DNA of 64,000 nt from Candidatus Hydrogenedentota bacterium (GCA_019455225.1 JACFMU010000006.1:7561-71560), one strand, 5' to 3'; numbered from the stretch's first letter, positions 11,685-45,436 are shown. Notes: generated from the sequence alone by a model not told the origin. Numbers and translations are program-made.

Positions 11685-13382
11685 CTAGTGCACGTGGGCC
11701 GAGCCGAGGCCCGAACCGGCAACCGAGGCCAACCGCACCAGATACGCGCCCTGCGACACCACCCGCTCGCCCGCCGCCACGCCGTCCAACACCTCCACCA
11801 TCACCCCGTCGCGGACGCCCAGGCGCACATTGCGCTTCTGAAAGCTCTCCCCCTCCAGCATCACATAGACCGTCGCGATGCCGTTCTCGTCCACCACCGC
11901 CGAGACCGGTATCCGGACGGCGTCCTCCACGCCCCGCCCGTCCGCCCAAACACTGAGCGACATGCCCACGGCAAGTCTTCCCTCCGCGTTGTCCAGATGG
12001 AAAAACAGCGGCGCCGTGCGCGTCTCCGGGTCTACCTTGGGCGCCATCCACGGTTCGGGCGCGCCCGCCGCCGGAACAACAGCCCGCAGCACCCCCCCTT
12101 CGCCGGGCAGCTCCAGCATGCCCGACGGCGGGTTCGCCAGCGCGGGAATCAGGGACTCCGGCGCGTGCGCCTCGACCAGCACGGTGCCCGCCCCGGTGAT
12201 GGTGAGCACAGGCGCGCCCGCGTCCACCAGCGTGCCCGGTCCGGCGTGAACCTGTGTCACTCGGCCGGTAATCGGGACGGAAACCACAGGGCGTGTCTCC
12301 GGTGGGGCCGGGGGCGCCGGGGCGCCGACACCCGACCGGGCCGCGCGGACACTCTCCGCCACACGCTCCGCCGCGCGGAGCATGGCGCGCGCCTCGTCAA
12401 GCGCGCTCCTGGCCGCGTCCACATCGCGCTGGGACCCCGCCCGCGCATCGAGAAGGTCCGCCGCGCGTTTCAGGGCGCGCTCGTGCTGCGCCACCAGCGC
12501 CCGCGCGCGGTCCGCCTCTCCGGCGGCCTCCGCCGCCCGCGTGTCGAGGTCCACCGTGAGAGACTGGCGGCCCTGGGTGTTCGCGTCGCGGGCAAGGGAC
12601 TCCGCGCTCATCGCGGCGGTGTCCACCCATGCCAGCGGCTGTCCGGCCTCCACCGCATCGCCAATCCGGGGAAAGGACGACATGCCCTCCGTCCTCAGCA
12701 CGCCCCCCAGGGGCGCCGCCGCCATGTTCTGCGTGTCGGGAGTGGGCACAACCCAGGCCGCCAAGCGGTGCCGCTCCACGACTGGACCCCGGTCTGCGGG
12801 AACTGTGACCACGGGCACCACCCACTGCTGCTCTTTGGTGAAAGAAATGGTGTTGGCCGGGCCCTCCTCATGCCCGTGGTCACGCTCACCGCCGGGACTT
12901 TGAACATCCAAGCCCTCCATCACGATTGTTTGCGCGCCGTCCTCCACGGAGACATCCAGGGCAATACGCCACTCGCCCGCCGTGGCGAATGCCGGGGATA
13001 TGGTGTAAATGCCGGAACGCCTCGGTGCGGCCTCCCCGGAAAACTCCGGACCGCCCCCGGCGGGGGCGGCACGGAAAGACACCTTTTCGGTCACGGGGAG
13101 ACCGGTCCGCACATGGGTCAGGTGGAGGAGAAAGTCCTGCGGGGCACCCGTTTCCAGGGGAGGGAACTCAGTGAACAACTCCAAGTCATCCGTCCAGACA
13201 CTGAGCGACTCATTGCCCTCGCCGTGGCCATGGTCGTGGGCTTCGGCACCGCCGCCATGTCCATGATCATGGGCGCCCGCCTGCTGTTTGGGAAGGCTGC
13301 ACCCGGCCGCCAATGCAACGCAAAACAATATGGCCGCGGCGGCAGCCCGTTTTTGTTTCAGGAAAATTACCCGAATCATCAT
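11685..13382 (-). CDS. efflux RND periplasmic adaptor subunit (CzcB/CusB-like) with His-rich N-terminal extension
   Basis: Lipoprotein-like signal (AAGCS). His-rich tract HDHGHGGGAEAHDHGHGEGNE plus a second DHGHEEG. Beta-barrel/lipoyl/coiled-coil adaptor core. Directly upstream of czcA. Confidence 0.85.
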   Translation of the reverse strand: MMIRVIFLKQKRAAAAAILFCVALAAGCSLPKQQAGAHDHGHGGGAEAHDHGHGEGNESLSVWTDDLELFTEFPPLETGAPQDFLLHLTHVRTGLPVTEKVSFRAAPAGGGPEFSGEAAPRRSGIYTISPAFATAGEWRIALDVSVEDGAQTIVMEGLDVQSPGGERDHGHEEGPANTISFTKEQQWVVPVVTVPADRGPVVERHRLAAWVVPTPDTQNMAAAPLGGVLRTEGMSSFPRIGDAVEAGQPLAWVDTAAMSAESLARDANTQGRQSLTVDLDTRAAEAAGEADRARALVAQHERALKRAADLLDARAGSQRDVDAARSALDEARAMLRAAERVAESVRAARSGVGAPAPPAPPETRPVVSVPITGRVTQVHAGPGTLVDAGAPVLTITGAGTVLVEAHAPESLIPALANPPSGMLELPGEGGVLRAVVPAAGAPEPWMAPKVDPETRTAPLFFHLDNAEGRLAVGMSLSVWADGRGVEDAVRIPVSAVVDENGIATVYVMLEGESFQKRNVRLGVRDGVMVEVLDGVAAGERVVSQGAYLVRLASVAGSGLGSAHVH

Positions 13383-19192: not shown

Positions 19193-19792
19193 TCATGCGC
19201 TCAAAATTTTTCCCACCAGCCTGTAAACGGTGGTGCTGCCGGGCTCGTGCGGCCAGTCTTCGCAGGGGGGCGTGTCGCGGCGTTTGGCCCGGCGAATGGC
19301 CTCCTCCACCATTTCCCGCGAGATTATGCCTGAAGGAATTCCCTTGTCATAGTTTGGAAGACACTTCCTTAAACGCAGAACACAGGCATTGCCATCGGCA
19401 ACGCCTGCGCCATCCTCGAAGTGAAGCAGCAGCCAATATTCAAAATTGGGGTTGCTCAATGCAAGCGAGTAATTGGCCCCGGTCGTTGACCAGTCATGCA
19501 GTTCCCTAATCTGTTCGTCCGTCCATTGGTCCTTGTCCACGACCAGCCAGGCCTCATCAGACCGCCCCAACGTGTTTGTGGCCAGGTGGTCCCTCATTCG
19601 CTTCAACGCCTGCAAAGGCGAACTGTTTTGGTTGCCTTTTATGCAGAACACTCTGGCCGTTGAGGACATGTCCCTGAACAGGCGAAAATATTGGGGTTCC
19701 GTTTTGAAGCCCTCGGCGGCGATGACAAACAGCCTCACATACCGCCGCCTGCCCATCGGCCTCCGAAAACTTCTGCTTTTTTGCGGCATCAA
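19193..19792 (-). CDS. RloB-like protein (AbiLii-like, Toprim-like)
   Basis: N-terminal [14 protein letters not shown] matches the RloB family signature (C-E-G-x-TE-x-x-YF). 199 aa. Lower GC than flanking DNA. ATGA overlap with the upstream ATPase gene. Confidence 0.8.
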
Positions 19793-21135
19793 CCACTCCC
19801 CTTGGCGCTGCGGACAGGTTTCAGGCCTGTGCCGGCCCCCACCAGCATAATATAAGGCACCCCGCCGAGACGACCCTGAAGATAACTTTTCCGGAGGTCC
19901 TTGTCATAACGGACATCCTTGTATTCGCTGAATGAAACCAGGCTCGACGCGCCCAGTACGTTCTTCTCAGCCACCCACATCTCATCCCGGCGAAACAACT
20001 GCTGGTCCATAAGCAGGACATCATGGGTCGTAAGAAGCAACTGGGCCCGGCTTTCCGGTCCACAACAGGACAGGTACGATTCAAGCAGGTGCCTGGTCAG
20101 CAGGGTGTGCAGGCTGCGGTCAATCTCGTCAATGACATAAACCTTTGTGGAATTTACGGAGGACATGTCCAAAAAGGCGGGCAGCAGATCTATGATTCGC
20201 TGCGAGCCGTCCGACTCCAGGCTTATGTCAAATGAAGCCTCCGTTCCATCCGCTTTCGGATGATAGGCGACCAGTTTTTTTGCAAGCAGCTCGCCGTTTT
20301 TTCGGGTAATAAAAACACGTTCAATCGGCGATTCATTGCGCAACCGGGCACCCCCCCCCTCCTTGACCTTTTCTTGGATAATATTCCTTTCGTGCTCGGA
20401 AAGGGGTATGTTTTTGTACGGAATGGCTTCACCGCCCAAACGCTCTATTCCAGTATCAAGCTGCGGCAACAGTTCATTCATCCTTACATACAACGGATGT
20501 TCCTCATCCAGAAACCAGTCAAATGTCTCAAATCTTGAGTCGGGACCAATAAGCCTCAGCGTGTTCTTAAACCACTCATATACCGGCCGGAAATGATTCA
20601 TCTTTTGGGAGACCGAGTTGGTCAAGAAAAGCTGGTTGTCCCTCGTACCCTTAAACACAATCGGCAACGATGTGTCGTTCTTGAGAGAACCATCGAAATC
20701 GGCCTCACCCCCCTCGCGCTCATACAAAACCCGCTCGCTGGCGCTGTTCACTTGCACGAGTTTCTCTTCGAGGACGCATTCACGGGTGACTGCAAAGCTG
20801 AACTCGTAAATGGTCTCATCCGCCAATATCTCAAAGGTGAAGCGTGTGGGCTTCCCAAGGCTTTTGGCGTCAAGCCGGAACGGCTCGACCAGGATGGGGC
20901 TGTCGGGCTGGGTGCCGTCAACGACCAGTTTCTTGGCAAAATTCAGCGCCTTGAAAAAGTTTGTCTTGCCCGAGGCGTTGCCGCCATACAAGGCCGCAAT
21001 GGGGAGGACGGAAGTCTTGTATTTCTCCAGCTTTGGCAGGCGGTCCCGGTGCTGGCGCTCCCGGCTGGCAATCATCGAGAAAGTAACGGAGTCCCGGAAG
21101 GACATCCAGTTTTCAAGGGTGACGCGGATAAGCAT
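19789..21135 (-). CDS. AAA family ATPase (AAA_21/ABC-like, RloA/AbiLi-like)
   Basis: P-loop [20 protein letters not shown] signature-like [10 protein letters not shown], Walker [13 protein letters not shown], and an H-loop TTHD. 448 aa. AT-richer than the surrounding sequence. Confidence 0.85.
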
Positions 21136-21330
21136 TGTGTGGCACCTTGCGTGATATAACTGTTATTAACCGCAACAAGTGTACACTCTTTTAGGTTATT
21201 TGTCAACGATTACGAGATTTTTTCTCACAAACACTGACTGTCACGCGATGCAAGGCTTTTCGCAGTGTTCCAAGATTCTTCACGCGGCCAGACACGCCCA
21301 CTCCGCTCCGCCCCCGTCATTCCCGCGCAC

Positions 21331-21536
21331 GGGGCCTTCCCAAAACCCCAGTTCCGCGCAACAGACAGGATTTTCCACAACACGCCCAACCCAAGGCCGT
21401 CATTCCCGCGCACGCGGGAATCCAGTGATACCAACAGGTTACGCCGACCCTGCCGCTCTGGATTCCCGTTTTCACGGGAATGACGGGGGGTGGTTTCGTG
21501 TCCTTTTCCCTGGTCCAGACCTTTCTGGAAGGCCCC
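21331..21536. repeat. MITE-like element copy 1 (about 206 bp) with terminal inverted repeats GGGGCCTTCC(C)AAAA
   Basis: Left end GGGGCCTTCCCAAAACCCC, right end CTTTCTGGAAGGCCCC. The interior contains the hairpins GTCATTCCCGCGCACGCGGGAATC and GGATTCCCGTTTTCACGGGAATGAC. About 85-90% identical to the inverted copy at 51396-51605. Flanked by the half palindromes CGTCATTCCCGCGCAC and TTTCACGGGAATGACGG. Confidence 0.75.
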
Positions 21537-21624
21537 TTTCACGGGAATGACGGAAAAAGAGTTTCCTGAGTCTTGCTGAAGTGTGAAACTATCGGAAAGT
21601 CCTGCCGCGGATTTTGGGGCGCGC

Positions 21625-22196
<572 letters not shown>

Positions 22197-22200
<4 letters not shown>

Positions 22201-23684
22201 GATTCGAGCCCCTTCTCGGCGAAGTCCACGGCCTTGAAGAGGGCCATGGCCTTGTTGACGGTTTCCTCGTACTCGCGGTCCGGGTCGCTGTCGTAGACAA
22301 CGCCCGCGCCGGCCTGCAGGTAGGCCGTGCCGTCCTTCACCACCATGGTGCGGATGAGGATGCACGTGTCCATCTCGCCGTCGTAGCTGATGTAGCCGCA
22401 GCCGCCCGCGTAGGGGCCGCGCCGGTCCGGCTCCAGTTCGTCTATGATCTCCATGGCGCGGATTTTCGGCGCGCCGCTCACGGTGCCCATGGGGAAGGTG
22501 GCGGCCACGGCGTCCAGGGCGTCGCAGTCCGCGAGCATTTTCCCGGCCACCTCGCTGACAATGTGCATCACGTGCGAGTAGCGCTCGATGACCATGAGCT
22601 TCCCAGGCACGGGCGCGACGGTTCCCGGCTCGCTGATGCGGCCCACGTCGTTCCGGCCCAGGTCCACCAGCATCAGGTGCTCGGCGATTTCCTTCTCGTC
22701 CGCCAGCAGCTCCTTCTCCAGCGCGAGGTCCTCCTCGGGCGTCGCGCCGCGCCTCCGCGTGCCCGCGATGGGCCGCACCATCGCCCGGCCGTTCTTCACC
22801 TGGGTCATCACCTCGGGGCTGGACCCCACCAGGGAGAACTCGGGGAACTGGAGGAGGAGCATGTAGGGCGAGGGGTTGATGCAGCGCAGCGCCCGGTACA
22901 GGTTCACCGGGCTGGCGCCCACGGGACGGCGGAATCGCTGCGAGAGGACCACCTGGAAGATGTCGCCCGCGCAGATGTACTCCTTCGCCGCGCGCACGGC
23001 GCCGCAGAAGGCCTCGCGGCTGAAGTTGGACTCGACGGGCACCTCCTCGACGGCGTTGTGCAGGCGCTCGGTGGAAACCACCAGGGGCCCGCGCAGGCGC
23101 TGCTCGATCTCGTGAATTTTGCGCAGGGCCTCGTTGTACACCGCGTCGGCCGGCCCGCTCACATGGGCGTTCGACACGATCTGAATCTTGTTCTTCACGT
23201 GGTCGAAGATCAGGATCGTGTCGGTAATCATGTAGTAGAGGTCGGGCAGGTTGAGCGGGTCGGGGTTGTCGTCCGGCAGCTTCTCGAAGAAGCGGACCTG
23301 GTCATAGGAGATGTAGCCGACCGCCCCGCCGTGGAAGGCGGGCAGGCCCGGCACGGGCACCGGCTCGTACTGTTTCATCAGGGCGCGCAGCTCGTTCAGG
23401 GGGTTGTCCGAGGTGAACTTCTCCTCCACCCCGTCGCGGACGATGACCCCCTCGCGGCCCTTGGAACGGAACACGATGGAGGGGTTCGCGCCCAGGAACG
23501 AGTACTGGCCGATGGTGTCGGCCTTCTCGACGCTTTCCAGCAGGAAGGCGAAGGTCTGCCCGCGGGACAGTTTCAGGTACGCCGTGACCGGGGTTTCCAG
23601 GTCGGCGAGGATTTCTTTGCACACCGGCACCACGGCGTTGGGCCGGGAAAGCCGCCGGAATTCTTCAAGGCTGGGGTAAATCAT
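22197..23684 (-). CDS. trpE: anthranilate synthase component I
   Basis: Chorismate-binding enzyme motifs (FRRPVGASPVNLYRALR, GAVGYISYD, GAPKIRAMEII). Start set at the second ATG (MIYPS), which has AAGGAG 7 nt upstream. The in-frame ATG at 23699 is an alternative. Confidence 0.9.
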
Positions 23685-33515: not shown

Positions 33516-36242
33516 CTACTCCTTCACAAAAACCGCCTGCACCTCGTCGCCTACGGGTTTGCAGAGGGTGAAGCCCACTTTCCGGCAAAGGCGGTGCATG
33601 GGGGTGTTTTCGGGGTGGATCACGCCGATGACGCGGGATATTTTCTCGTCCCGGGCCACGTCGAGGAGGTGCCGGAGCATGGCCTCTCCCAGTCCCTGGC
33701 CCTGCACGGCGTCGCTGACAACGAGGGCGAAATCGGCGTCGTTGGTGCCGTGGATACGAACGATGCGGCTGATGGCGAGGATGCGGTGCCCGCCGGTGTC
33801 GGGGTCCCGCGCCTCGGCGACCAGGCCAATCTGCCGGGCGTAGTCAATGAAGCACATCTGCGACAGGCGCTCGTGGCGGATGCGCTGGTCAAAGGAAAGC
33901 AACCGCAGGTAGCGGAAGTAGACGGTCTCGCTGGAAAGGGTCTTGTGGAAGGCCACCAGCATGCCCTCGTCCTCGGGGCGGATGGGGCGCATGGTCAGGC
34001 GGGTGCCGTCCTTGAGCACGGCCTCGCGGGTGTACCGTGCGGGATAGGGCCGGATGGCGGGTTTGGGCAGGGTGTCGTCCGCCACGTCCGCATCATGGAG
34101 CACTATCCGCGCGTCGAGCGCCTCGATGCGCTCCGCGGTGGCGAACAGGGGGTTGATTTCAATCTCGCGGATGCGGGGCAGGTCCACCACCAGGTCGCCG
34201 AAACTGACCAGAATCTGCTCAAGGCGCTCCATGTCCACGGCGATGGAGCCGCGCGCGCCGCTCAGGGCGCGGCTGATGCGGGTGCGCTCCATGGTGCGCC
34301 GCGCGAGGGTCGTGTTGACGGGGGGCAGGGCGATGGCGCGGTCGCGCAGCACCCCGGCCAGGGGTCCGCCCGCGCCAAACTCGATGCAAGGGCCGAACTG
34401 CGGGTCCACAAAGGCGGCCAGCACGATCTGGTACCCGGCGGTGCGGACCGCCGGACGGATGCTCACCCCGTCGGCGCGCGCCTCCCCGGCGTTCTCCATG
34501 AGCTGGTCAAAGGCGCGGCGCGCCTCGTCGGCGTTTATCTGGCTGAGCTGGCGAATGGGAATCTGGAGGTCGCAGGTGACGGGCGAGCCGTTCAGTTTCA
34601 TGGAGACGGGCCAGCCAAGCGCCTCCGCATGGGCCGCCGCCTCGTCCGCGCTGCGCGCCACCAGTGACGGCGCCACGGGCAGGCCGTAGGCCGAAAGCAC
34701 CGCCTTGCTCTCCTCCTCGGTGAGGCTGACACGCCCGCGCGCGCGGGCCCCCTCCACAATCCGCCGGGCCTCCTCGCGCGCCTCGCCGCCCTCTCCGGAG
34801 AGGGGCTGCGCCGTCTCGTACAGGCCGCGCAGGGCGTAACTGTAGCGCCACATGGCGGCATAGACCCGCGCCGCCGCGTCGGGATAGGCGAAACACGGGA
34901 CCAGATGCTCTGTGAGAATCCGCGCGCCCTGGGCCACGGCCTCGCCGCCCATCCAGCTCGCGATGACGGGCTTGCCGTGGCCCCGGTCCATGCGCCCGAC
35001 CGCCTCGGCCGTGGCGGTGGGGTCGGTGGTGGCCTGCGGGGTGAGAATGACCAGCATCCCGTCGTTGGCCGGGTCCTTGGCGACGGCCGCAAGCGCGGCG
35101 GAATAGCGGTCCGGATCGGCGTCGGCCACCACGTCCAGCGGGTTGTTCCTGTTCCAGTAGGAGGGCAGCACCGTGTTCAGCTCGTCCATGGTTGCCGGGG
35201 AGATGGGCGCCAGTTCGCCGCCCGCCCTGACCAGGGCGTCCGTGGCGAGGATTCCCGGCCCCGCCGCATTGCTGACAATGGCCAGCCGGGGCCCCCTGGG
35301 CCTGGGCTGCTTGCCCAGGGTGTCGGCCATGGCGAAGAGGGTCTCCACGTCGTCCACCCGGAGCACGCCGCAGCGCATGAGCGCGGCGGCCAGCACCGCG
35401 TCGTCCCCCGTGTCCGTGGAGGTGTACGCCGAGTGCCGCGCGGCGCGCGCGCCCGACTCGGTCTGCCCCGCCTTCAGCACGATGATGGGCTTGGTGAGCG
35501 CCACTTCCCGGGCCGCGGACAGGAAGGAGCGCGCGTCGCCGATGGACTCCATGTAGATGACGATGCTTTTGGTCTTCGGGTCATCGCCCAGGTAATAGAT
35601 CAGGTCGCTCCACTGCACGTCCACCATGGCGCCGAAGGACACAAATTTGCTGAACCCCGTCTTCGCGCGGAAACTCCAGTCGAGCACGGAGGCGCAGAGC
35701 GCCCCGCTCTGGCTGATGAACCCCACCGACCCCTTCAGGGCAATGTTGGCGGAATACGCGGCGTTGAGGCCCCGCATGGGGTTCATGATGCCCAGGCTGT
35801 TCGGCCCGATGACCCGGATGCCGCCCCTGCGCGCCCGCTCCCTGATTTGCGCCTCAAGCGCGCGGCCCGGCTCGCCCCGTTCGGTGAATCCCGCGGAGAC
35901 GATGATGGCCCCGCCCACCCCGGCGGCCGCACAGTCGTCCAGCACGCCGGGCACGGTGGCGGCCGGGGTGACAATCACGGCCAGGTCCAGCGGATACTTG
36001 ATGTCCGACAGCCGGGCGTGGGCGTGAACGCCGAGCACCTGGCGGCGCGACTGGTTCACCGGGTACACCGCGCCGCCGAAGGGGCTGTTAAGAATGTTCC
36101 AGAACACCTTCCTGCCGACGCTGCCGGGGCGCTCCGACGCGCCCACCACGGCAATCGAGCGGGGCTTGAAAAAGGCGTCGAGGGAATGCCGTGTCTCCCC
36201 CTCCTGTTCCGCTCCATACTGCAAATGCTGCGGTCCGGGCAT
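33516..36242 (-). CDS. bifunctional NDP-forming acyl-CoA synthetase / GNAT acetyltransferase (Pat/PatZ-like protein lysine acetyltransferase)
   Basis: N-terminal CoA-binding and succinyl-CoA-synthetase-like domains ([18 protein letters not shown]-grasp) fused to a C-terminal GNAT ([11 protein letters not shown]...[10 protein letters not shown]). Start at MPGPQHL, with alternatives further upstream. Confidence 0.85.
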
Positions 36243-36436
36243 GGATACTCCTCGCATTGGGACTGGCCGGGGCGATTGTACCATACCCGGACCGGTGGAA
36301 CCGGAGTTTGAAAAAAGTTGCCAGTCCGTTGAAAAAATGACGTTGCGGACATGAAAAAGACATGGATGAGGTGGTACCCTTTGCTCCCTGTCGAAGGTTA
36401 TGCCTGTCGTCTCACCCAACAACAAGAGGAATCCAA

Positions 36437-37756
36437 ATGAACCGTTTCAGACAGTTCTGCACAGGACGTTTTAGCGTCTTTTTTTTCGCGGCGACACTGT
36501 TTTCCCTGTCCGTCCTGGCGGATGCGCCCCGCAACATCATTCTCATGATAGGCGACGGGATGGGGCACAACCACGTGCTGGCGGCGGATTATTATGAACA
36601 TGGGGAGACGGGAAAACAGGCCTATCAGCATTCCGGGTTTCACGCGCTGTCCATGACCACCTTTCCCGCCGGCGGCTCTTATGACCCGGAAAAGGCCTGG
36701 AACGACCCAAAATATCCACCCCGTGGCGTCACGGACTCGGCGGCGGCGGCTACGGCGCTAAGCACGGGCGCCAAAACCAAAAACGGAATGATTGGGCTTG
36801 GCCCCGAGGGTGAACCCCTCGAGACCATGGCGGACTTTGCCAAAAAAACCGGCAGGGTAACCGGACTGGTGACCACCGTGCCGGTGACACACGCCACCCC
36901 CGCCGGTTTCGCGGCGCACAAGCAAAGCCGAAACCTGTACACGGAGATTGCCAACGAGATTATCGAGGAGTCGCCTGTCGTGGTGCTCATGGGCGCGGGC
37001 CACCCCGAATACGACAATAGCGGCAAGCCCGTCGAAAACACCGACGAAAAATCGTTTCAGTATGTCGGCGGCGCCGAAATGTGGGAGCGGCTGAAGTCGG
37101 GTGCGCACCCGGAATGGCAGCTCATCCAGGAACGCGCCGACGCAGTGCGCCTCCAAACAGAAAAGGCGGATAAAAACAAGGTCATCGGCGTGTTCAAGGC
37201 TGAGGCGACCCTGCAGGCGGGGCGTGAAAGCGCGGACGGGGAGCCGCGTGATGACGCGCCATACGCGACACCGCTCCGTGAGGATGTGCCCTCCCTGTCT
37301 GAAATCTCACAGGCCGCGCTGAATCATCTGACCAACACCGGCAAGGGATTCTTCCTCATGATCGAGGGCGGAGCCATTGACTGGACCAGCCATAACAACG
37401 CGCTGGGCAGGATGATTGAGGAGCAGACCGGGTTCAACGGCGCCGTGTCGTCCGTGGTGGCGTGGATAGAAGAGCATGGCGGGTGGGAGCAGAATCTCCT
37501 GATCATCACCGCAGACCATGAGACAGGTTATTTGAAAGGCCCCGACAGCGCGGCGGATGTGGAAAACAAAGGCGCGGGCAACCTGCCCGGCGTGGTGTGG
37601 ACAGCCAAGGGGCACACGAATTACCTGGTGCCGTTTTATGTGCGCGGCGCGGGCGGGGAAGAATTTGTGAATCGCGCCACCGGCAACGACCCGGTTCGCG
37701 GAAAATATATTGACAACACCGATGTGGCCAAGGGAATCCGGGAAATCTGGAAATAG
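36437..37756 (+). CDS. alkaline phosphatase (PhoA family), secreted
   Basis: Signal peptide, then [10 protein letters not shown] and [12 protein letters not shown] (active-site Ser motif). AGAGGA RBS upstream. Confidence 0.85.
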
Positions 37757-37767
37757 TCTTTTCTTGT

Positions 37768-37820
37768 AAAAACAAGGCCCGCAACACCCAAACATGGGAA
37801 TTGCGGGCCTTGTTGTTTTC
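37768..37820. terminator. bidirectional intrinsic terminator between convergent phoA-like and dnaN
   Basis: 13-bp stem ACAAGGCCCGCAA / TTGCGGGCCTTGT with a 16-nt loop, flanked by an A-tract (AAAAA) on one side and a T-tract (TGTTTTCC) on the other. Confidence 0.65.
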
Positions 37821-37827
37821 CGGAACG

Positions 37828-38940
37828 TCAGATGCGGATGGGCATCACCACATTCACATAACTGTCTGAAGGCGCGTCCGTGTAAGGCTTGATGATGCCG
37901 GGACTGCTGGTGTCTTTGAGCAGCAGGCAGACCTTTTCGGTGTCAATGTTGCGCAGCACATCGAGAATAAACGCGGGGTTGAAGGCAATCTCCACGCTGT
38001 CGCCGTCATATTCGACCGGAGTGCAGTCCTCGTATTCGCCCACTTCCGGGGTTTTCACGATGACCCGCATCATGCCGCTCTCAATAGCCAGACGGACATT
38101 GCGGAAACGGTCGTTGGTCATGGCCAGGGCAAGACGCATGATCCGCTCGAAGGCCTCCACTGTGAGCGCAATTTCCTTGTCGTGTTTCTTGGGGATGACT
38201 GTCTCGTAGTTTGGAAAATTGCCCTCAATCAACGTGGAGGACGTGGTGAGATTTTTCATGAAGAAGCCAATCTGGCTTTCCTCGACACAGACACCGACCG
38301 TCTGCTCATCATCCGAACCAAGAAGCGACAGCAACTCGTGGATCATTTTGGCGGGAACAATCACCTTGAAGTCCTGCGATGAATCCATGAGATCGTCCGT
38401 CTTGGCGAGGCTCATGCGGCGGCCGTCAGTCGCCACCACGGTCAATATCCCGGCCTTGAATTCAAGGAGAAGACCGGTCAGGTTGTAGCGGGACTGATCG
38501 GTGCAGATGGCGAACACGGTCTTTTGAAAGAGTTTCTTCAGCATTCCCTGCTTAAAGACCATCGGCTCCACATCCCCAAATTTCCGGATTGGGGGGAACT
38601 CTTCCGGAGGCATGCTGAAAAGCCTTGTCTCCATCTGGCCGCAGGTAAGGCTGATGACGTTGTTTTCCTGCAAGTCCAGGGTGATGTCGGCGTCTGGAAG
38701 CTCGCTCAGCAGCATGGCCAGACGCTGGCAGGACACTGTGAGCGCGCCGGGGCGCTCCACAGAGCAATCCACCACGCAGACCGTGCTAATCTTTAGGTCC
38801 GTGCCGGAAATGGTCACAGACGAGTCTCCCGTTTCCATCAGCACCTGCGTGAGAATGGACAGTGAACTCTTTGCGGCCACAACGCTCTTGAGCTTGCCAA
38901 CCGCTTCCTGTAAATCGTGTTTTGGGAGGGTGATACGCAT
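37828..38940 (-). CDS. dnaN: DNA polymerase III beta sliding clamp
   Basis: 370 aa with three beta-clamp domains. MRITLPKHDLQEAVGKLKSVV... is a typical DnaN N-terminus. Confidence 0.95.
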   Translation of the reverse strand: MRITLPKHDLQEAVGKLKSVVAAKSSLSILTQVLMETGDSSVTISGTDLKISTVCVVDCSVERPGALTVSCQRLAMLLSELPDADITLDLQENNVISLTCGQMETRLFSMPPEEFPPIRKFGDVEPMVFKQGMLKKLFQKTVFAICTDQSRYNLTGLLLEFKAGILTVVATDGRRMSLAKTDDLMDSSQDFKVIVPAKMIHELLSLLGSDDEQTVGVCVEESQIGFFMKNLTTSSTLIEGNFPNYETVIPKKHDKEIALTVEAFERIMRLALAMTNDRFRNVRLAIESGMMRVIVKTPEVGEYEDCTPVEYDGDSVEIAFNPAFILDVLRNIDTEKVCLLLKDTSSPGIIKPYTDAPSDSYVNVVMPIRI

Positions 38941-39645
38941 TCGGTGTCTCCGTCAAGCCCCTGCGTGGGGATAAGTTTTGTCTCTTTATATGGGAATTGT
39001 TGTTTATAGATCAAGTCTTAAGAGTAATAGGCCTGTTAGGACTCTTAATAACTGTTTTAAGTTGTTTTATTGCAACGGGTTGTCCAGTGGATAGCATGGG
39101 GATGGTTTTGCCAGTCCAGTCCCTCTTATCCCCATTCCCTGTGGAAGCGGTCATGACCCTTTGGATTAACCCTGAAAAATGTGGAGAAACAGCCAAGGTT
39201 ATCCAGATTTTGCCCGTGTTTTCTCCACAAGTGGTCTTGCAGTGATGTTCCACGGATTTTTTTGGCCTGTTATCCACAGGACATTTTCTTGCAAACATTC
39301 AACTTACATGATTTCCACGGGCTGTTGTCAACAGCGCGTGGAACGGTTTTCCATATCAGGAACAGACTCTTTTTACACCATGAAAAAAAATGTTGTAACA
39401 CACTGAAAATAAAGAAGTTATATAAAGAAATCTTTCCAGTCAAATGTGCCGAAAAAATTCTTTAAGTCAGTCTTTGCCAAGAAGTTGCGTCAAAGTCCGC
39501 ATCCATCAGGCCTGACGCGGGTGTGGTGCGATTCACCGCTTTTCCACAGTCTATCCACATTACGGTGGGCCGAACCTCACCCTGCCATGGACACATGCTA
39601 GCAAAGACACCTTGAAAAAGCAACCTATCTTGAGCAATGCGCCGC
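38941..39645. other. putative chromosomal replication origin (oriC): AT-rich region with a DnaA-box cluster upstream of dnaN
   Basis: Perfect DnaA box TTATCCACA at 39270-39278. One-mismatch boxes at 38966-74 (TGGGGATAA), 39180-88 (TGTGGAGAA), 39199-207 (TTATCCAGA), 39219-27 (TTCTCCACA), 39540-48 (TTTTCCACA) and 39551-59 (CTATCCACA). AT-rich putative DUE at 39361-39470. Gene-strand bias flips at this locus. Confidence 0.55.
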
Positions 39646-41580
39646 CTAATCGCGAATAACGCGAAAATATTCTTCAGGTGCCGCGATTCCGGCCAAAATT
39701 TTCTGGCGGCAACGTTCCGCCATGGATTTGAACGCTGACAAGTCAGCCGATTCGCGGATGTCAGCCTCCGCAAGAATGACTTTTCTTATGTCCGAAGTAA
39801 CCTCAAACACCTCAAAGATACCGGTTCGGCCAAGATTTCCCGTGTAATGACAGGCCGGGCACCCGTTGCCCCTGAAAAGTTTGGCGGTTTTTTTGGGAAG
39901 GCCCAGAGATTCCAGCAGAGCGACGGTTGGTTTGAAGGGTTTTCGGCATTCAGGGCAAATTTTGCGAATCAGACGCTGTCCGATGACTGCGGTCAGCGCG
40001 CTGGAGATCAAGTATGGCGGGATGCCCATGTTGCGGAGGGTGCCCAGCGCCTCCAGGGCGTCATTGGTATGGAGGGTGCTGAAGACCAAATGTCCGGTCA
40101 TCGCCGCGCGAATGGCGATGTGGGCGGTTTCCTGGTCGCGGATTTCCCCCACAAGCAGCACGTCAATGTCCTGCCGCAGGGAGGCGCGCAGGGTGCTGGC
40201 AAAGGTGAGCCCAAGATCGGTGTCCACCTGCACCTGGTTGATTCCGGGCAACTGGTATTCAACAGGGTCCTCCAGGGTGACAATGCTCTCGGTCATCACG
40301 TCCTTCTGGTTCAGCGCCGCATACAGGGTCGTGGTTTTCCCGCTTCCCGTGGGGCCGGTCACGAGGACCATGCCGTAGGGCTGCCGCACAAGACGGAGTA
40401 TTTTTTCCTCGTCCTCCTTCTCCATGCCAAGGTCCTTGATGCCGGAAAGAACGGAGGACTGGTCGAGCAGCCGCAGCACGGCGCGCTCGCCGAGGAAGGT
40501 GGGAAGCGTGGCAACGCGGATGTCCAGGGTTTTTCCGCCCAGGGTGTCGCTGAAATGGCCGTCCTGCGGGTGCCGTGTCTCCGTGATGTCCATGTCCGCC
40601 AGAATTTTTATCCTGGAAACCACGGCATTGTGCTGGGTGCGGGGAAGGCTCATCACGTCATGAAGGACGCCGTCAATGCGGTATCTGACGCGCGTTTCCG
40701 GCTCCTGCGGATCGAGGTGGATGTCCGTGGCGCCCGCGTTGACCGCGCCCTCGAGAATGGTGGCGACCATTCTGACAATCGGCGCGCCCTCGGCCTGTTT
40801 GGCCACTTCGGCGAAACGGGCCAGTTTGTCCCGTTGCACATCGGTGATTTGCAGCGCGGCATCCTCCGAAGCGGCGCCTGATTCAGCCTGTTTCACCAAC
40901 GGCGGTTTTTCAGCCCCGGCAATTACTCTTTCCGGCTCATCAGCGGCGAGTTCCCTGTAACGCGCCCGAATTTCCCCCTCCAGGTCATCGCACGCCGTCA
41001 TCACCGAATGAATCCGTTTTCCCAGCAGCACACCCGCCTCGCGGGCGCGCTCCCTTGCCTGGGAAGTGGTGACCAAAACCACGAGCCGGTCGCCGTTCAG
41101 GTGGAGGGGAAGCATCCCGTTTTTAACGGCCATGGATTCCGGGACCGCCTCGAGGGCCTCCGCGTCGCTGGGCGACTGGTCCACGTCGGCATATTCGGCG
41201 CCGTACTGTTCGGCCAGGGCCATCCCAATCTCACGGCTGCTGACAAACCTCTTCTCAAGGAGAATGCTGCCCAGCAGCCGCCCGCTTCTCTTCTGTTCGG
41301 CCAGCGCCTGGTCAAGCTGTTTTTTTGAAAGGCATTTGCGGCGCAGCAGGGTTTCGCCAAGCGTTTGGTGGGCGCTGTGGGCCGAGCGGGAGTGAAACTC
41401 GTACCGCAGCACGTTCTCAAGCGTCTCAAAGCCGATCTTTCGGTTTTGAATGAGCGACTTGTACCACGGGACCCCGCTTCGGGCTTCGGTCTCCCTGGCC
41501 TGGGCCAGTTCCTCGCGGGTGATGAGTTCCTGTTTGATCAGTTCCTCGCCGCTGTCCGGGGTGCTGGTCTGGTTTTCCAT
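39646..41580 (-). CDS. type II secretion / type IV pilus assembly ATPase (GspE/PilB family)
   Basis: Tandem N-terminal T2SSE_N domains, Walker A GPTGSGKTTT, Asp and His boxes, and a tetracysteine motif CPECRKP...CPACHYTG. Confidence 0.9.
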   Translation of the reverse strand: MENQTSTPDSGEELIKQELITREELAQARETEARSGVPWYKSLIQNRKIGFETLENVLRYEFHSRSAHSAHQTLGETLLRRKCLSKKQLDQALAEQKRSGRLLGSILLEKRFVSSREIGMALAEQYGAEYADVDQSPSDAEALEAVPESMAVKNGMLPLHLNGDRLVVLVTTSQARERAREAGVLLGKRIHSVMTACDDLEGEIRARYRELAADEPERVIAGAEKPPLVKQAESGAASEDAALQITDVQRDKLARFAEVAKQAEGAPIVRMVATILEGAVNAGATDIHLDPQEPETRVRYRIDGVLHDVMSLPRTQHNAVVSRIKILADMDITETRHPQDGHFSDTLGGKTLDIRVATLPTFLGERAVLRLLDQSSVLSGIKDLGMEKEDEEKILRLVRQPYGMVLVTGPTGSGKTTTLYAALNQKDVMTESIVTLEDPVEYQLPGINQVQVDTDLGLTFASTLRASLRQDIDVLLVGEIRDQETAHIAIRAAMTGHLVFSTLHTNDALEALGTLRNMGIPPYLISSALTAVIGQRLIRKICPECRKPFKPTVALLESLGLPKKTAKLFRGNGCPACHYTGNLGRTGIFEVFEVTSDIRKVILAEADIRESADLSAFKSMAERCRQKILAGIAAPEEYFRVIRD

Positions 41581-41700
41581 GGCAATGGCTCCAGGCTGAC
41601 GCCTTGTTGATTATAGCCCCGCCGGATACCGGGCACAAAACGGCTTTCCGGGCGGGGCGCGTGGTAGAATGAACACCCTGAAAGGACGGCATTCACCGGC

Positions 41701-42162
41701 ATGGGCGAAAAAATCATCACCACCAACCGCAAGGCGTTCCATGAGTACCATGTGCTGGACCGCGTCGAGGCGGGCATAGCGCTGCAGGGCACCGAGGTGA
41801 AATCCCTGCGGATGAAGGGCTCCATGCAGTTGAAGGACTGCTATGTGGACTTCGAGCGGGGCGAGGCGGTCCTGGTGGGGGCGCACATCAGCCCCTACGA
41901 GATGGGGAACATCTACAACCACCCGCCGGAGCGCCCGCGCAGGCTGCTGCTTCACAAGCGGGAAATACTGAAACTTTCCGCGAAGGTGGCGGAGAAGGGC
42001 CTGACCGTGGTGCCGTTGAGCGTGTATTTCAAGAAGGGCCGGGTGAAGATAGAACTGGGGCTGTGCCAGGGCAAGCACACCTTTGACAAGCGCGCCTCCA
42101 TCAAGGAGCGGGAAAGCCGCCGCGAGATGGACCGCGCGGTCAAAATGGTCAGGCGGGGGTAG
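41701..42162 (+). CDS. smpB: SsrA-binding protein
   Basis: IITTNRKAFHEYHVLDRVEAGIALQGTEVKSLR...LLLHKREI is the canonical SmpB sequence. Confidence 0.95.
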   Translation: MGEKIITTNRKAFHEYHVLDRVEAGIALQGTEVKSLRMKGSMQLKDCYVDFERGEAVLVGAHISPYEMGNIYNHPPERPRRLLLHKREILKLSAKVAEKGLTVVPLSVYFKKGRVKIELGLCQGKHTFDKRASIKERESRREMDRAVKMVRRG

Positions 42163-42167
42163 GGGCC

Positions 42168-42599
42168 GTGCAGCGCGCGCAGGGCGGCGCACGCCCGCTT
42201 CTGGTCGGGCGGCCGATCCAGATTCAGCCGTATGACATAGACTTTGCGGCCCATGTGAACAACGCGGTGTATGTGCGGTGGCTCGAGGACCTGCGCATGG
42301 ACATGCTGCGCGCCTACTGTCCCATGCGCCCGCTCATGGAGGAGGGCCTCGCGCCGGTCGTCGCCGCGACGCACATCCGCTATGTAAAGCCGCTGAAACT
42401 GTTCGACGCGCCCGTGGGGCGCATGTGGTGCGCCGAGATGGGCCGGGCGACGCTCACGCTGGAGGCGGAGATTGCCGTGGGGGACACGGTTTACACCGCC
42501 GCGACGCAGCGCGTGATGATGGTCAACTGGCAAACGGAAAAGGCGGCCCGGGTGCCGCTGGAACTTCGGGAACGATTCGCGCGGGAGGCGGGGCCATGA
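42168..42599 (+). CDS. acyl-CoA thioesterase (hotdog fold, 4HBT/YbgC-like)
   Basis: IQPYDIDFAAHVNNAVYVRWLEDLRMDMLRA is a hotdog thioesterase signature. GTG start. The stop overlaps a truncated CMD-like ORF. Confidence 0.75.
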   Translation: MQRAQGGARPLLVGRPIQIQPYDIDFAAHVNNAVYVRWLEDLRMDMLRAYCPMRPLMEEGLAPVVAATHIRYVKPLKLFDAPVGRMWCAEMGRATLTLEAEIAVGDTVYTAATQRVMMVNWQTEKAARVPLELRERFAREAGP

Positions 42600-42675
42600 C
42601 CAGACGGACCGGGAGCGGGCGGATGGAGCCCTTCAAGAAAAGGACCTACCGGAGTTTTGGCGAGTTGTGGCGTTG

Positions 42676-42760
42676 CAAGCCTGCGGAGAGGCAATGTAGG
42701 CCTGCAATGAGGCGTTGCAGGCTTGAAACGAGGCATTGGAAGCCTGAAATACGACTGATG
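42676..42760. repeat. four degenerate ~21-bp tandem repeats at the island junction
   Basis: Units CAAGCCTGCGGAGAGGCAATG / TAGGCCTGCAATGAGGCGTTG / CAGGCTTGAAACGAGGCATTG / GAAGCCTGAAATACGACTGATG. They follow a 75-bp fragment homologous to the CMD gene start at 46925. Confidence 0.5.
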
Positions 42761-43070
42761 AAACGAGAGGAAAGGCTCATAAACACAACACTGACAGAAG
42801 GATACGAATCATGGCGCAATTTCCGAGGGACCGAAGCCCAGTGGATGGACTGTAAGGATGAGGTTCTTATGCCTATCCGCATAACATGCCGAGCGAAATG
42901 GAATGGCAAACGACAAGGCACTGAAAGAAGAAGACTTATTGCGACTTTGGGGAGTTTCCCAAAGGGGTCTTATCCGGACAGGAACGAAGAAACCTGCATC
43001 TTATGCGGGTCCATCTAATTATTGTTAGCCCGAAACTACGTCAAGGAAACCCAAGGAAGCCAATTGCGCC

Positions 43071-44270
43071 ATGGAAAGCAAGTCGCTGAACCGAGGCCTC
43101 GGCGCCGCGAAGGCGGCCAAACAGGACGAGTTCTACACCCAGTACGTCGACATCCAGAAAGAGGTCGAGGCCTACCTGGAGTTCGACCCCGACACCTTCC
43201 GCGACAAGGTCGTTTACTGCAACTGCGACGACCCCTTCGAGAGCAACTTCTTCAAGTACTTCGCCGCCAACTTCAACAAGCTAGGCCTCAAGAAGCTCAT
43301 CACCACCAGCTACGACGGCTCCCCCATCGCCGGTCAGCTCACCTTGTTCCCGGAATACGACGAGGGGAATGGCAAGCGCCAGAAGCCCAAGGCGCTCGCC
43401 GTCATCCTCGACCATGTGAAAGATGAGGACGGAGACGGCGCGGTGAACATAGACGACGTGAAACTCTTTCTCAAGCGTAACAAGGCCGCACGGATAGCCT
43501 TGAAAGGAGAAGGCACGTACCCCGGCGGCGACTTTCGCAGCCCCGAGTGCATCGCGCTCCTGAAAGAGGCGGACATTGTCGTCACCAACCCACCCTTCTC
43601 CCTCTTTCGCGAGTACGTCGCGCAACTCGTGGAGCACGGGAAGAAGTTCCTCATCATTGGGAACAAGAACGCGATCACCTACAAGGAGATATTCCCGCTC
43701 ATCAAGGAGAACAGGCTATGGATGGGAGTAACGCCGATGGGCGTCGACATGCTCTTCGACGTACCAGAGCGAGTAGCGAAAGCGATGGTCGCTGCGGGAA
43801 AAAAGGGGAGCAACTACAGGATCGTCAACGGCAAGGTAATGGGCCGGTCTACTTCGGTCTGGTTCACAAACCTGGACCATGGCCGCCGCCACCAAAAGCT
43901 GCCCCTCATGACCATGGAGGACCACTTAAGGTTCAGTAAACACAAGGAGATCAAGGGCAAGGCGGCCTACGACCGGTACGTCAACTACGACGCAATCGAA
44001 GTTCCGTACACCGACGCGATCCCCAGCGACTACGATGGCGTCATGGGCGTCCCCATCTCTTTCCTCGACAAGTACAACCCTGACCAGTTCGAGATTCTGG
44101 GATCAAGCATGACCCTCAGTGTTCCGATGTCCCAGTTCGCAAAAAAGGGAAGCTACTTGCAAGGCGGGCCGCGTTTCTACATTGACAATGGCGACGGAAG
44201 TTATCGCCGGATGTACGACAGAATCGTCATCCGCCACCGCGCCCGGACAGCAACAGGGAGGAAAAAGTGA
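43071..44270 (+). CDS. N6-adenine DNA methyltransferase, EcoRI-methylase-like family
   Basis: N-terminal [16 protein letters not shown] block (DEFYT), catalytic NPPF motif ([14 protein letters not shown]), and 399 aa. Lower GC than flanking DNA. AGGAAG RBS upstream. Confidence 0.75.
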
Positions 44271-45436
44271 AGACCACGCTAAGAACCGACATCACGGTCG
44301 CCGATATCTGCGACGAGTTTGTGTACAACGATTTTGAGGGCAAAGGGTTGTTCGGGCTGAGCGGAAAGCTCACCATCCAGCCGGAGTACCAGCGCAACTA
44401 TATCTATAAGGACATCGAAGGCGGCAAGAAAGAGCAGGATGTGATCCATTCGCTGCTCAAGGAGTATCCGCTCGGGCTGATCTACTTCAACAAAGTCGGC
44501 GAGGACAAGTTCGAGGTGCTGGACGGCCAGCAGCGGATCACCAGTATCGGACGGTTCGTTACGAACAAGTTCGCGATCATGGATAACGGCAACCCGAAGA
44601 ATTTCGACAGCCTGCCCGCCGACCAACAAGCCACGATTCGGGACTCGAAATTGCTGATCTACGAGTGCGAGGGCACGGAGACCGAGATTAAGCAGTGGTT
44701 TGAGACGATCAACATCGCGGGCGTGCCGCTCAAACCGCAGGAACTCTTGAACGCCATCTATTCCGGCCCGTTCGTAACCCTTGCGAAGACGGAGTTCAGC
44801 AACAGCCAGAACGCGAACATCCAGAAGTGGAGCGCCTATGTCAGGGGCAGCGCGAACCGGCAGGAGTTCCTGGAGCGGGCGCTGGACTGGGTGAGCCAGG
44901 GCGATATCGGCGGCTACATGAGCGCTCATCGCAACGACAAGAGCATCAATGAGCTGAAGACCTACTTTAACAGCGTGATCGACTGGGTTTCAACCGTGTT
45001 TGTCGACGTTCTCCCAGAAATGAAGGGACTGGAGTGGGGCAGGTTGTACGAGGAGCACCACGGCAAGTCCTACGATCCAAAGAAGATGTCGGACGATGTA
45101 AAAGAACTCGCCGCCGATGACTGCGTGAAGAGCCGCAAGGGAATTTTCGAGTTTCTATTAGGCGGATTCGTCGATACGAAGTTGTTGGACGTCCGGGTGT
45201 TCGACAAGCCGGTAAAGCGGGCCACATACGATAAGCAGACGCAAGCCGCCGAGGGCAAGGGCGAGTCCAACTGTCCGCTCTGCGCGATTGGGCACGATGC
45301 GAACCAGAGTAGGATCTATAAGTTCGAGGAAATGGACGCCGACCACGTTTCCGCGTGGAGCAAGGGCGGCGAAAGCTCCGCCAAGAACTGCCAGATGCTC
45401 TGCGTTACCCACAATCGGGCCAAAGGTAATCGATGA
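44267..45436 (+). CDS. DUF262 (ParB-like nuclease fold) - HNH endonuclease fusion protein
   Basis: N-terminal DUF262 signature [18 protein letters not shown]-terminal HNH motif CPLCAIGHD...[13 protein letters not shown]...[18 protein letters not shown] start overlaps the methyltransferase stop (GTGA). Confidence 0.8.

Follow-up and report, generated by a model that had tools for sequence, protein, structure and literature searches.

The 64-kb window analysed here (the whole stretch of DNA, 64,000 nucleotides, from a Candidatus Hydrogenedentota bacterium) contains a 705-bp gap between two minus-strand genes, dnaN and a gene for a PilB/GspE-family ATPase (Table 1). The gap is 44% GC, compared to ~65% across the window. 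The dnaN product matches Pfam DNA_pol3_beta, _2 and _3 and scores 267 bits against the TIGR00663 equivalog model (cutoff 138). The ATPase scores 63.6 bits against NF053729 (cutoff 38) and falls below the PilB and GspE equivalog cutoffs; an earlier note on this DNA had called the neighbour gspE/pilB-like, which agrees with its T2SSE and MshEN domains. The ATPase gene is an orphan, with no pilus or secretion genes alongside. An Rfam E-value scan of 37500-43200 placed no RNA family in the gap, and its three weak matches all lie just downstream of dnaN, far under their gathering scores. A scan of the window for tRNA and tmRNA genes returned none.

The plus strand to the right of the gap carries smpB, rpsB, tsf, pyrH, frr, uppS, a release-factor gene and lysS; the minus-strand exceptions there are dnaK and the PilB-like gene. 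From an AcrB/CzcA-type pump through dnaN, most ORFs that have a coding signature run on the minus strand, as does topA. Because it carries topA, dnaK, rpsB-tsf-pyrH-frr and lysS, we take the window to be chromosomal rather than plasmid DNA. No DnaA homologue was found in the window by tblastn (E<=1e-3) with an E. coli DnaA query, a fragment to which Pfam assigns Bac_DnaA and Bac_DnaA_C.

Table 1. Features in and beside the gap between dnaN and the PilB-like gene (positions in the window)
Feature	Position	Strand	Remarks
dnaN (DNA polymerase III beta clamp)	37828..38940	-	reads away from the candidate origin
Candidate oriC	38941..39645	.	gap between dnaN and the PilB-like ATPase gene
Ribosome-binding site of dnaN, GGAGA	38947..38951		
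DnaA box TTATCCCCA	38966..38974	-	between proximal AT-rich stretch and dnaN ribosome-binding site
Proximal AT-rich stretch, candidate DNA unwinding element	38970..39018	.	conserved TTTATATATAAAAA in relatives
Possible dnaN promoter, TTGATC and TATAAA	39009..39014 and 38985..38990	-	read by eye; overlaps proximal AT-rich stretch
Whole proximal module (box pair, GC cluster, trios, start of AT-rich stretch)	38997..39052	-	conserved 56-mer
DnaA-trio-like repeats	39019..39030	+	5'-TAAGAGTAATAG-3' = 3'-GAT AAT GAG AAT-5'
GC cluster GGC between boxes and trios	39031..39033	-	PWM columns 19-22; counterpart of the B. subtilis GGCC gap
Degenerate tandem boxes TTATTAAGA (3 mismatches) and GTCCTAACA (5 mismatches)	39034..39051	-	
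25-nt motif copy 3, CAACCCGTTGCAATAAAACAACTTA	39058..39082	-	at -142; between a box and the proximal box pair
DnaA box CTATCCACT, 2 mismatches	39086..39094	-	aligned with a conserved TTATCCACA in relatives
Central DnaA-box array	39126..39229	.	conserved box-like columns in the gap alignment
Central-array box TTATCCCCA	39126	+	
Central-array box TAATCCAAA, 2 mismatches	39160	-	
Central-array box TTCTCCACA	39180	-	
Central-array box TTATCCAGA	39199	+	
Central-array box TTCTCCACA	39221	+	
Left arm of inverted pair around the perfect box, TGTTCCACG	39246..39254	+	
Perfect DnaA box TTATCCACA	39270..39278	+	conserved box at about -333
Right arm of inverted pair around the perfect box, CGTGGAACG	39337..39345	+	
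Distal AT-rich stretch	39361..39470	.	28% GC; overlaps 25-nt motif copies 1 and 2
25-nt motif copy 2, TAACTTCTTTATTTTCAGTGTGTTA	39396..39420	-	invariant TAA and TTA columns
25-nt motif copy 1, CAACTTCTTGGCAAAGACTGACTTA	39463..39487	-	at about -545 in relatives
Distal tandem DnaA boxes TTTTCCACA and CTATCCACA	39540..39559	+	starts 11 bp apart
Promoter-like TTGCTT-N17-TAGCAT, TG at -15/-14	39595..39623	-	reads toward the boxes and dnaN
Orphan PilB/GspE-family ATPase, MshE-type c-di-GMP motif	39646..41580	-	T2SSE 2e-124 and MshEN

Matches to the DnaA box TTATCCACA with at most one mismatch number 14 in the window, where ~4 are expected, and eight of these fall within 38966-39559. The eight comprise one perfect and seven one-mismatch boxes on both strands, in line with the one perfect and at least six one-mismatch boxes in both orientations that the earlier note had read. 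Dinucleotide-preserving shuffles of the AT-rich gap alone (n=3000) contained 0.20 +/- 0.44 such boxes, and none reached eight. With up to two mismatches allowed there are twelve boxes, spread over 600 bp of the gap.

A scan with the DnaN protein, limited to one genome per species, yielded 34 loci in relatives with DnaN 44-61% identical to that of the window; most are labelled Candidatus Hydrogenedentota and several are filed under Nitrospiraceae or Nitrospirales. At 31 of the 34 loci, dnaN is preceded by a PilB-like gene in the same orientation. Identities of 54-68% make its product no less conserved in the phylum than DnaN. The gap between the two genes measures 583-890 bp at 29 of these 31 loci and is AT-richer than the locus as a whole, while the outer flanking genes vary from species to species. 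In the two closest relatives, a 3.5-kb (L002, 6517-10000) and a 1.3-kb (L003, 5188-6487) insert holding one to three extra ORFs lie between the PilB-like gene and the box cluster. At another locus (L001, 48% GC, labelled Nitrospirales), the box cluster and a near-perfect unwinding module are present and the PilB-like gene is absent upstream (of 9185). None of the 34 relatives encodes a DnaA homologue within 10 kb of the locus. An exact-protein look-up with the DnaN of the window gave an 8.9-kb contig and no other, which adds nothing on the chromosomal context.

The distances of the boxes from the dnaN ATG are conserved, at about -610/-600, -333, -246, -162 and -108. The distal tandem pair recurs in most relatives, and most also have a box 325-341 nt upstream of dnaN, where the window has its perfect box. 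Two relatives (L001 and L016) share with the window a box about 28-31 nt upstream of the dnaN ATG. In an unbiased count of 8-mers over the 35 orthologous gaps, DnaA-box words rank first: TTATCCAC is present in 28 and TTTTCCAC in 25 of the 35, against about 0.8 expected. Since this non-coding layout is kept despite such divergence of the proteins, the gap must be under selection.

In most of these relatives, GC skew changes sign across the locus. With loci set so that dnaN is on the plus strand, 24 of the 26 relatives with enough flank had a higher skew on the side of dnaN than beyond the PilB-like gene (Wilcoxon p=4e-6). Plus-strand genes of the relatives have a mean skew of -0.005 to the left and +0.054 to the right (p=1e-6), and minus-strand genes of -0.045 and +0.021 (p=1.5e-6). 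Because the shift is seen within each gene strand, it is not an effect of gene orientation. In 30 of 31 relatives, the skew of dnaN also exceeds that of the PilB-like gene, which has the same orientation. G is in excess on the strands diverging from the gap, which is the sign of an origin rather than a terminus.

The cumulative G-C curve of the window declines from ~6 kb onward and reaches its minimum at 33554, 5.4 kb left of the gap; it then stays nearly flat to ~41.6 kb before rising. The minimum sits at the 3' end of a gene (33516-36425) for a large fusion of ADP-forming acyl-CoA synthetase domains to a C-terminal GNAT acetyltransferase, resembling the protein acetyltransferase Pat. Since the curve is flat from 33554 to ~41.6 kb, skew within this genome places the switch only to ~8 kb. 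Cumulative skew over the whole replicon had been proposed as a check on the origin; in the window alone its minimum is not at the gap and its flat floor spans the gap, and the curve is compatible with the gap as the origin without pinning it down. The earlier note had also pointed to a switch in gene-strand polarity (18 of 22 genes on the minus strand to the left, 19 of 22 on the plus strand to the right). Such a switch is roughly present in the window, with counts that we did not reproduce exactly. In the relatives, ORFs from a crude caller gave no significant switch (65 minus and 72 plus on the left, 100 plus and 81 minus on the right), and we therefore treat it as a local feature of this genome.

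Alignment of the gaps and a position weight matrix (PWM) revealed a conserved 56-mer that ends ~55 nt before the dnaN start. It contains, in order, two co-oriented TTTTCCAC-type boxes, a short GC cluster, a block with 3-nt periodicity (phylum consensus CTAyTACTACkACTACTT) and an AT-rich run, TTTATATATAAAAA. The layout was derived from a PWM of all 35 sequences, window included; a separate PWM trained on the 34 relatives alone scored 37.5 bits at 38997-39052, and the next-best site in the window on either strand scored -0.5. In relatives (e.g., L001, L024, L028 and L034), TTATCCAC/TTTTCCACA pairs occupy exactly the positions to which the degenerate tandem boxes of the window align. Within the adjoining AT-rich stretch, 38972-39011 (25% GC) is one of the two least stable 40-mers in the gap. 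A cATAAGAG motif is conserved in relatives ~45 nt before the dnaN ATG.

The order and orientation of the module (co-oriented boxes, GC gap, 3'-GAT-5' repeats, then AT-rich DNA) are those of the basal unwinding system, defined after Richardson 2016 and Pelliciari 2021. The published rule for this system asks for a box with <=2 mismatches within 16 bp of >=3 NAN trios, and allows at most 2 and at most 4 mismatches in the two boxes (PMC8287927). Because both of its boxes are degenerate (3 and 5 mismatches), the conserved site of the window lies outside this rule, with a spacer of 12 nt and four trios. The rule carries little weight here, since 41% of shuffled gaps comply with it. When a stricter threshold of four trios was applied, the module site was retained in four relatives (L001, L002, L003 and L024).

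A second conserved element of the gap is a 25-nt motif with the pattern YAA-N4-YTG-N12-TTA, present in three co-oriented copies. Copies 1 and 2 are always 66-67 nt apart in relatives, and, boxes aside, no block of the gap is better conserved than copy 2. Compared with the reverse-complemented IHF consensus YAANNNNTTGATW (that of E. coli), the three copies of the window agree at 7, 8 and 7 of the 9 specified positions; an IHF site is defined by a match to WATCAANNNNTTR. These sites, with their IHF-like core, probably bind a DNA-bending protein that shapes the initiation complex. No IHF or HU homologue was found in the window or within +/-10 kb of the relatives' loci. A hairpin formed by TAAG...CTTA motifs was considered and rejected; by eye, only TAA and TTA can pair with each other consistently.

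From these observations we predict that the gap is a DnaA-dependent chromosomal oriC directly upstream of dnaN, with dnaA encoded elsewhere, and put the probability of this reading at about 0.85. The gap has what is commonly sought in an oriC: a box cluster, an adjacent AT-rich stretch, a change of skew sign and a replication gene (dnaN) next door. An origin beside dnaN without dnaA is also what the earlier note had proposed, and the proposal gains from the conserved box layout, the skew flip in the relatives and the B. subtilis-type module. Initiation could proceed as follows. DnaA would occupy the stronger boxes (the distal pair at 39540-39559, the perfect box at 39270 and the central array at 39126-39229), from which a DnaA oligomer would extend toward the dnaN-proximal module. 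There, the co-oriented degenerate box pair and the GC cluster would guide ATP-DnaA onto the plus-strand trinucleotide repeats at 39019-39030, and loading onto these trios would open the adjacent AT-rich stretch at ~38970-39018, as in the basal unwinding system of B. subtilis. A bending protein at the three co-oriented, fixed-spacing 25-nt sites would shape the complex. Forks would then leave both ways, with transcription of dnaN co-directional with its fork. The binding of DnaA, the choice of the AT-rich stretch that melts and the bending protein are the parts of this scheme that we infer.

There are two AT-rich stretches at which such an origin could open, and they are equal in instability (both about 28% GC). 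The earlier note had favoured the distal one, at 39361-39470, as the unwinding element; its AT-richness was confirmed, while its role in unwinding passes to the conserved module at 38970-39052, which we regard as the likelier site by about two to one. In the alternative, the origin is correctly placed and unwinding starts in the distal stretch, leaving the proximal AT-rich block as a promoter of dnaN only. This is unlikely, although the distal stretch does hold the least stable 40-mer of the gap (39396-39435, 20% GC), and the permissive rule finds there a box, TTTTCCATA, at 39347 with an 11-nt spacer and three NAN trios. An IHF-like site adjoining an unwinding element would also recall E. coli oriC. 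However, the 39347 box and its trios are not kept in relatives, and the distal tandem boxes point away from the distal stretch, the wrong orientation for the unwinding system. A conserved trio block is found only at the proximal site; what is conserved in the distal stretch is the pair of 25-nt motifs at fixed spacing, which looks like a pair of protein sites. We place melting beside dnaN because the distal stretch holds these IHF-like copies in relatives, and the distal stretch itself would be a region bent by protein.

A more doubtful alternative, to which most of the probability left over from the oriC reading falls, is that the origin lies elsewhere, for example beside dnaA, and that the gap is either a DnaA-controlled regulatory region of dnaN or a titrating locus of the datA/DARS type. 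Several features would suit it: the distances of the boxes are fixed relative to the start of dnaN, the -35/-10-like pair overlaps the proximal AT-rich block, cATAAGAG is kept near the ATG in relatives, and the promoter-like element at the far end of the gap also reads toward dnaN. E. coli datA, too, combines DnaA boxes with an IHF site. But promoters and origins commonly overlap, so that the promoter-like features fit an origin equally, and twelve boxes over 600 bp exceed what a promoter operator needs. A regulatory region would leave unexplained why skew flips with the polarity of an origin at exactly this block, in 24 of 26 species and independently of gene strand, and why a 3-nt periodic trio block is oriented there as in the B. 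subtilis unwinding system. A datA/DARS-type locus is likewise at odds with the presence of both an unwinding-type module and a skew switch. Finally, the cluster might be a chance by-product of composition, the box itself being fairly AT-rich and the gap far poorer in GC than the genome. This is scarcely credible, since no composition-matched shuffle reached the observed count and species with such diverged DnaN proteins have these boxes at matching positions.

The promoter-like element at 39595-39623 lies 22 nt downstream of the PilB-like stop codon. Apart from the window, 11 relatives have this element or a close variant at -666 to -688, and in relatives a GC-rich stretch follows it. A generic sigma-70 promoter scan reported nothing in the gap, neither this element nor the dnaN-proximal pair. 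The element may be a relic of a dnaA-type promoter or the source of an origin-activating transcript.

The perfect box is bracketed by TGTTCCACG and CGTGGAACA, an inverted pair whose arms are 91 bp apart and, taken together, make up a parS site in two halves. Of the 35 gaps, 17 contain the 8-mer GTTCCACG/CGTGGAAC, compared to 0.5 expected. The arms could be weak variants of the DnaA box or ParB/parS half-sites. The window contains no full parS site, even with 2 mismatches allowed. The two closest relatives do have canonical parS palindromes, TGTTNCACGTGNAACA, ~1 kb downstream of dnaN (L002:12109-12124 and 12200-12215; L003:8622-8637).

A reading that would join these elements, and which we offer as a long shot, is that the origin belongs to one functional cassette with the orphan gene for the c-di-GMP-binding PilB-like ATPase, a cassette kept intact throughout the phylum. 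The promoter at 39595-39623 would fire through the boxes toward dnaN, possibly as the relic of a dnaA promoter that stayed behind when dnaA left a two-part origin of the B. subtilis type, and through the three phased IHF-like sites and the split parS-like half-sites, nucleoid proteins would be linked to initiation, possibly together with surface or c-di-GMP signalling.

The origin of B. subtilis is bipartite, with dnaA between its two parts. Its incC, between dnaA and dnaN, presents box #6, box #7, GGCC, CTACTATTACTTCTACTA, AT-rich DNA and dnaN in the same succession as the gap analysed here (PMC6669920, PMC8287927). Pelliciari et al. 2021 write this module in Table S2 as 3'-AATAGGTGT TTAGGTGT CCGG GATGATAATGAAGATGAT-5' (PMC8287927), the complement of which is TTATCCACA AATCCACA GGCC CTACTATTACTTCTACTA. 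The phylum consensus of the trio block agrees with CTACTATTACTTCTACTA at ~15 of 18 positions in the same orientation, and the B. subtilis type of unwinding layout is widespread (PMC8287927, PMC6669920). Unlike in B. subtilis, all elements lie in a single ~700-bp gap without dnaA, and the module boxes of this genome are degenerate (3 and 5 mismatches).

Cyanobacteria as a rule have their origin beside dnaN and encode dnaA elsewhere, an arrangement established experimentally in Synechococcus elongatus (PMC2650636, PMC7198777), whose module unwinds in vitro with its own DnaA (PMC2650636, PMC7198777, PMC8287927). The oriC of S. elongatus PCC 7942, and that predicted for cyanobacteria in general, resembles the present locus in occupying a gap beside dnaN, in its separate dnaA and in its TTTTCCACA-type boxes. 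The S. elongatus module consists of tandem boxes, a 4-nt GC gap and GAT trios (top strand TTTTCCACA TTTTCCACA GCCC CTACTACTACTG), and the module of the window is similar in order and orientation (Table S2, PMC8287927). The two differ in that Hydrogenedentota is an unrelated phylum, in which a conserved PilB-like ATPase gene borders the gap on its other side and the gaps use both TTATCCACA and TTTTCCACA, plus TTATCCCCA in the high-GC lineage. Moreover, the S. elongatus origin is experimental, whereas that of Hydrogenedentota is predicted from sequence. With origins of this kind, next to dnaN and lacking dnaA, already established in cyanobacteria, the present one adds little conceptually.

The oriC of Sorangium cellulosum was likewise predicted beside dnaN and not dnaA, in a high-GC genome and with a TTATCCCC-type variant of the box (PMC2650636); the two TTATCCCCA boxes of the window are comparable to this variant. 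The S. cellulosum prediction concerns one genome and comes without a described conserved module or partner gene. With E. coli oriC the gap shares DnaA boxes of graded quality and a site for a bending protein (IHF-like and putative here). E. coli oriC is flanked by gidA and mioC, is remote from both dnaA and dnaN and contains a single main IHF site, unlike the gap with its three co-oriented putative sites and their conserved extra TTA at position 23-25.

We know of no experimentally studied representative of Hydrogenedentota, and a full-text literature search found no report on an origin or closed genomes of this phylum. The Hydrogenedentota origin appears to be undescribed so far, as do the constant pairing of this origin with an orphan PilB-like gene and the phased 25-nt sites. 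A conserved origin signature could serve as a marker for ordering and orienting metagenome-assembled genomes, for estimates of growth rate from read depth and for building shuttle vectors. It would also add a deep-branching phylum to the evidence that the layout of box pair, trios and AT-rich unwinding region is ancient.

Two regions of lower GC elsewhere in the window hold genes of a different kind. At 43071-45436 (GC 0.56-0.59), beside smpB, a gene for an EcoRI-type adenine methyltransferase adjoins one for a GmrSD_N/HNH nuclease, and the region looks like a small restriction or defence islet. A patch at 19193-22365 (GC 0.55) carries a gene for an AAA_21 (AbiEii/OLD-like) ATPase at 19789-21135 and is possibly another defence islet.
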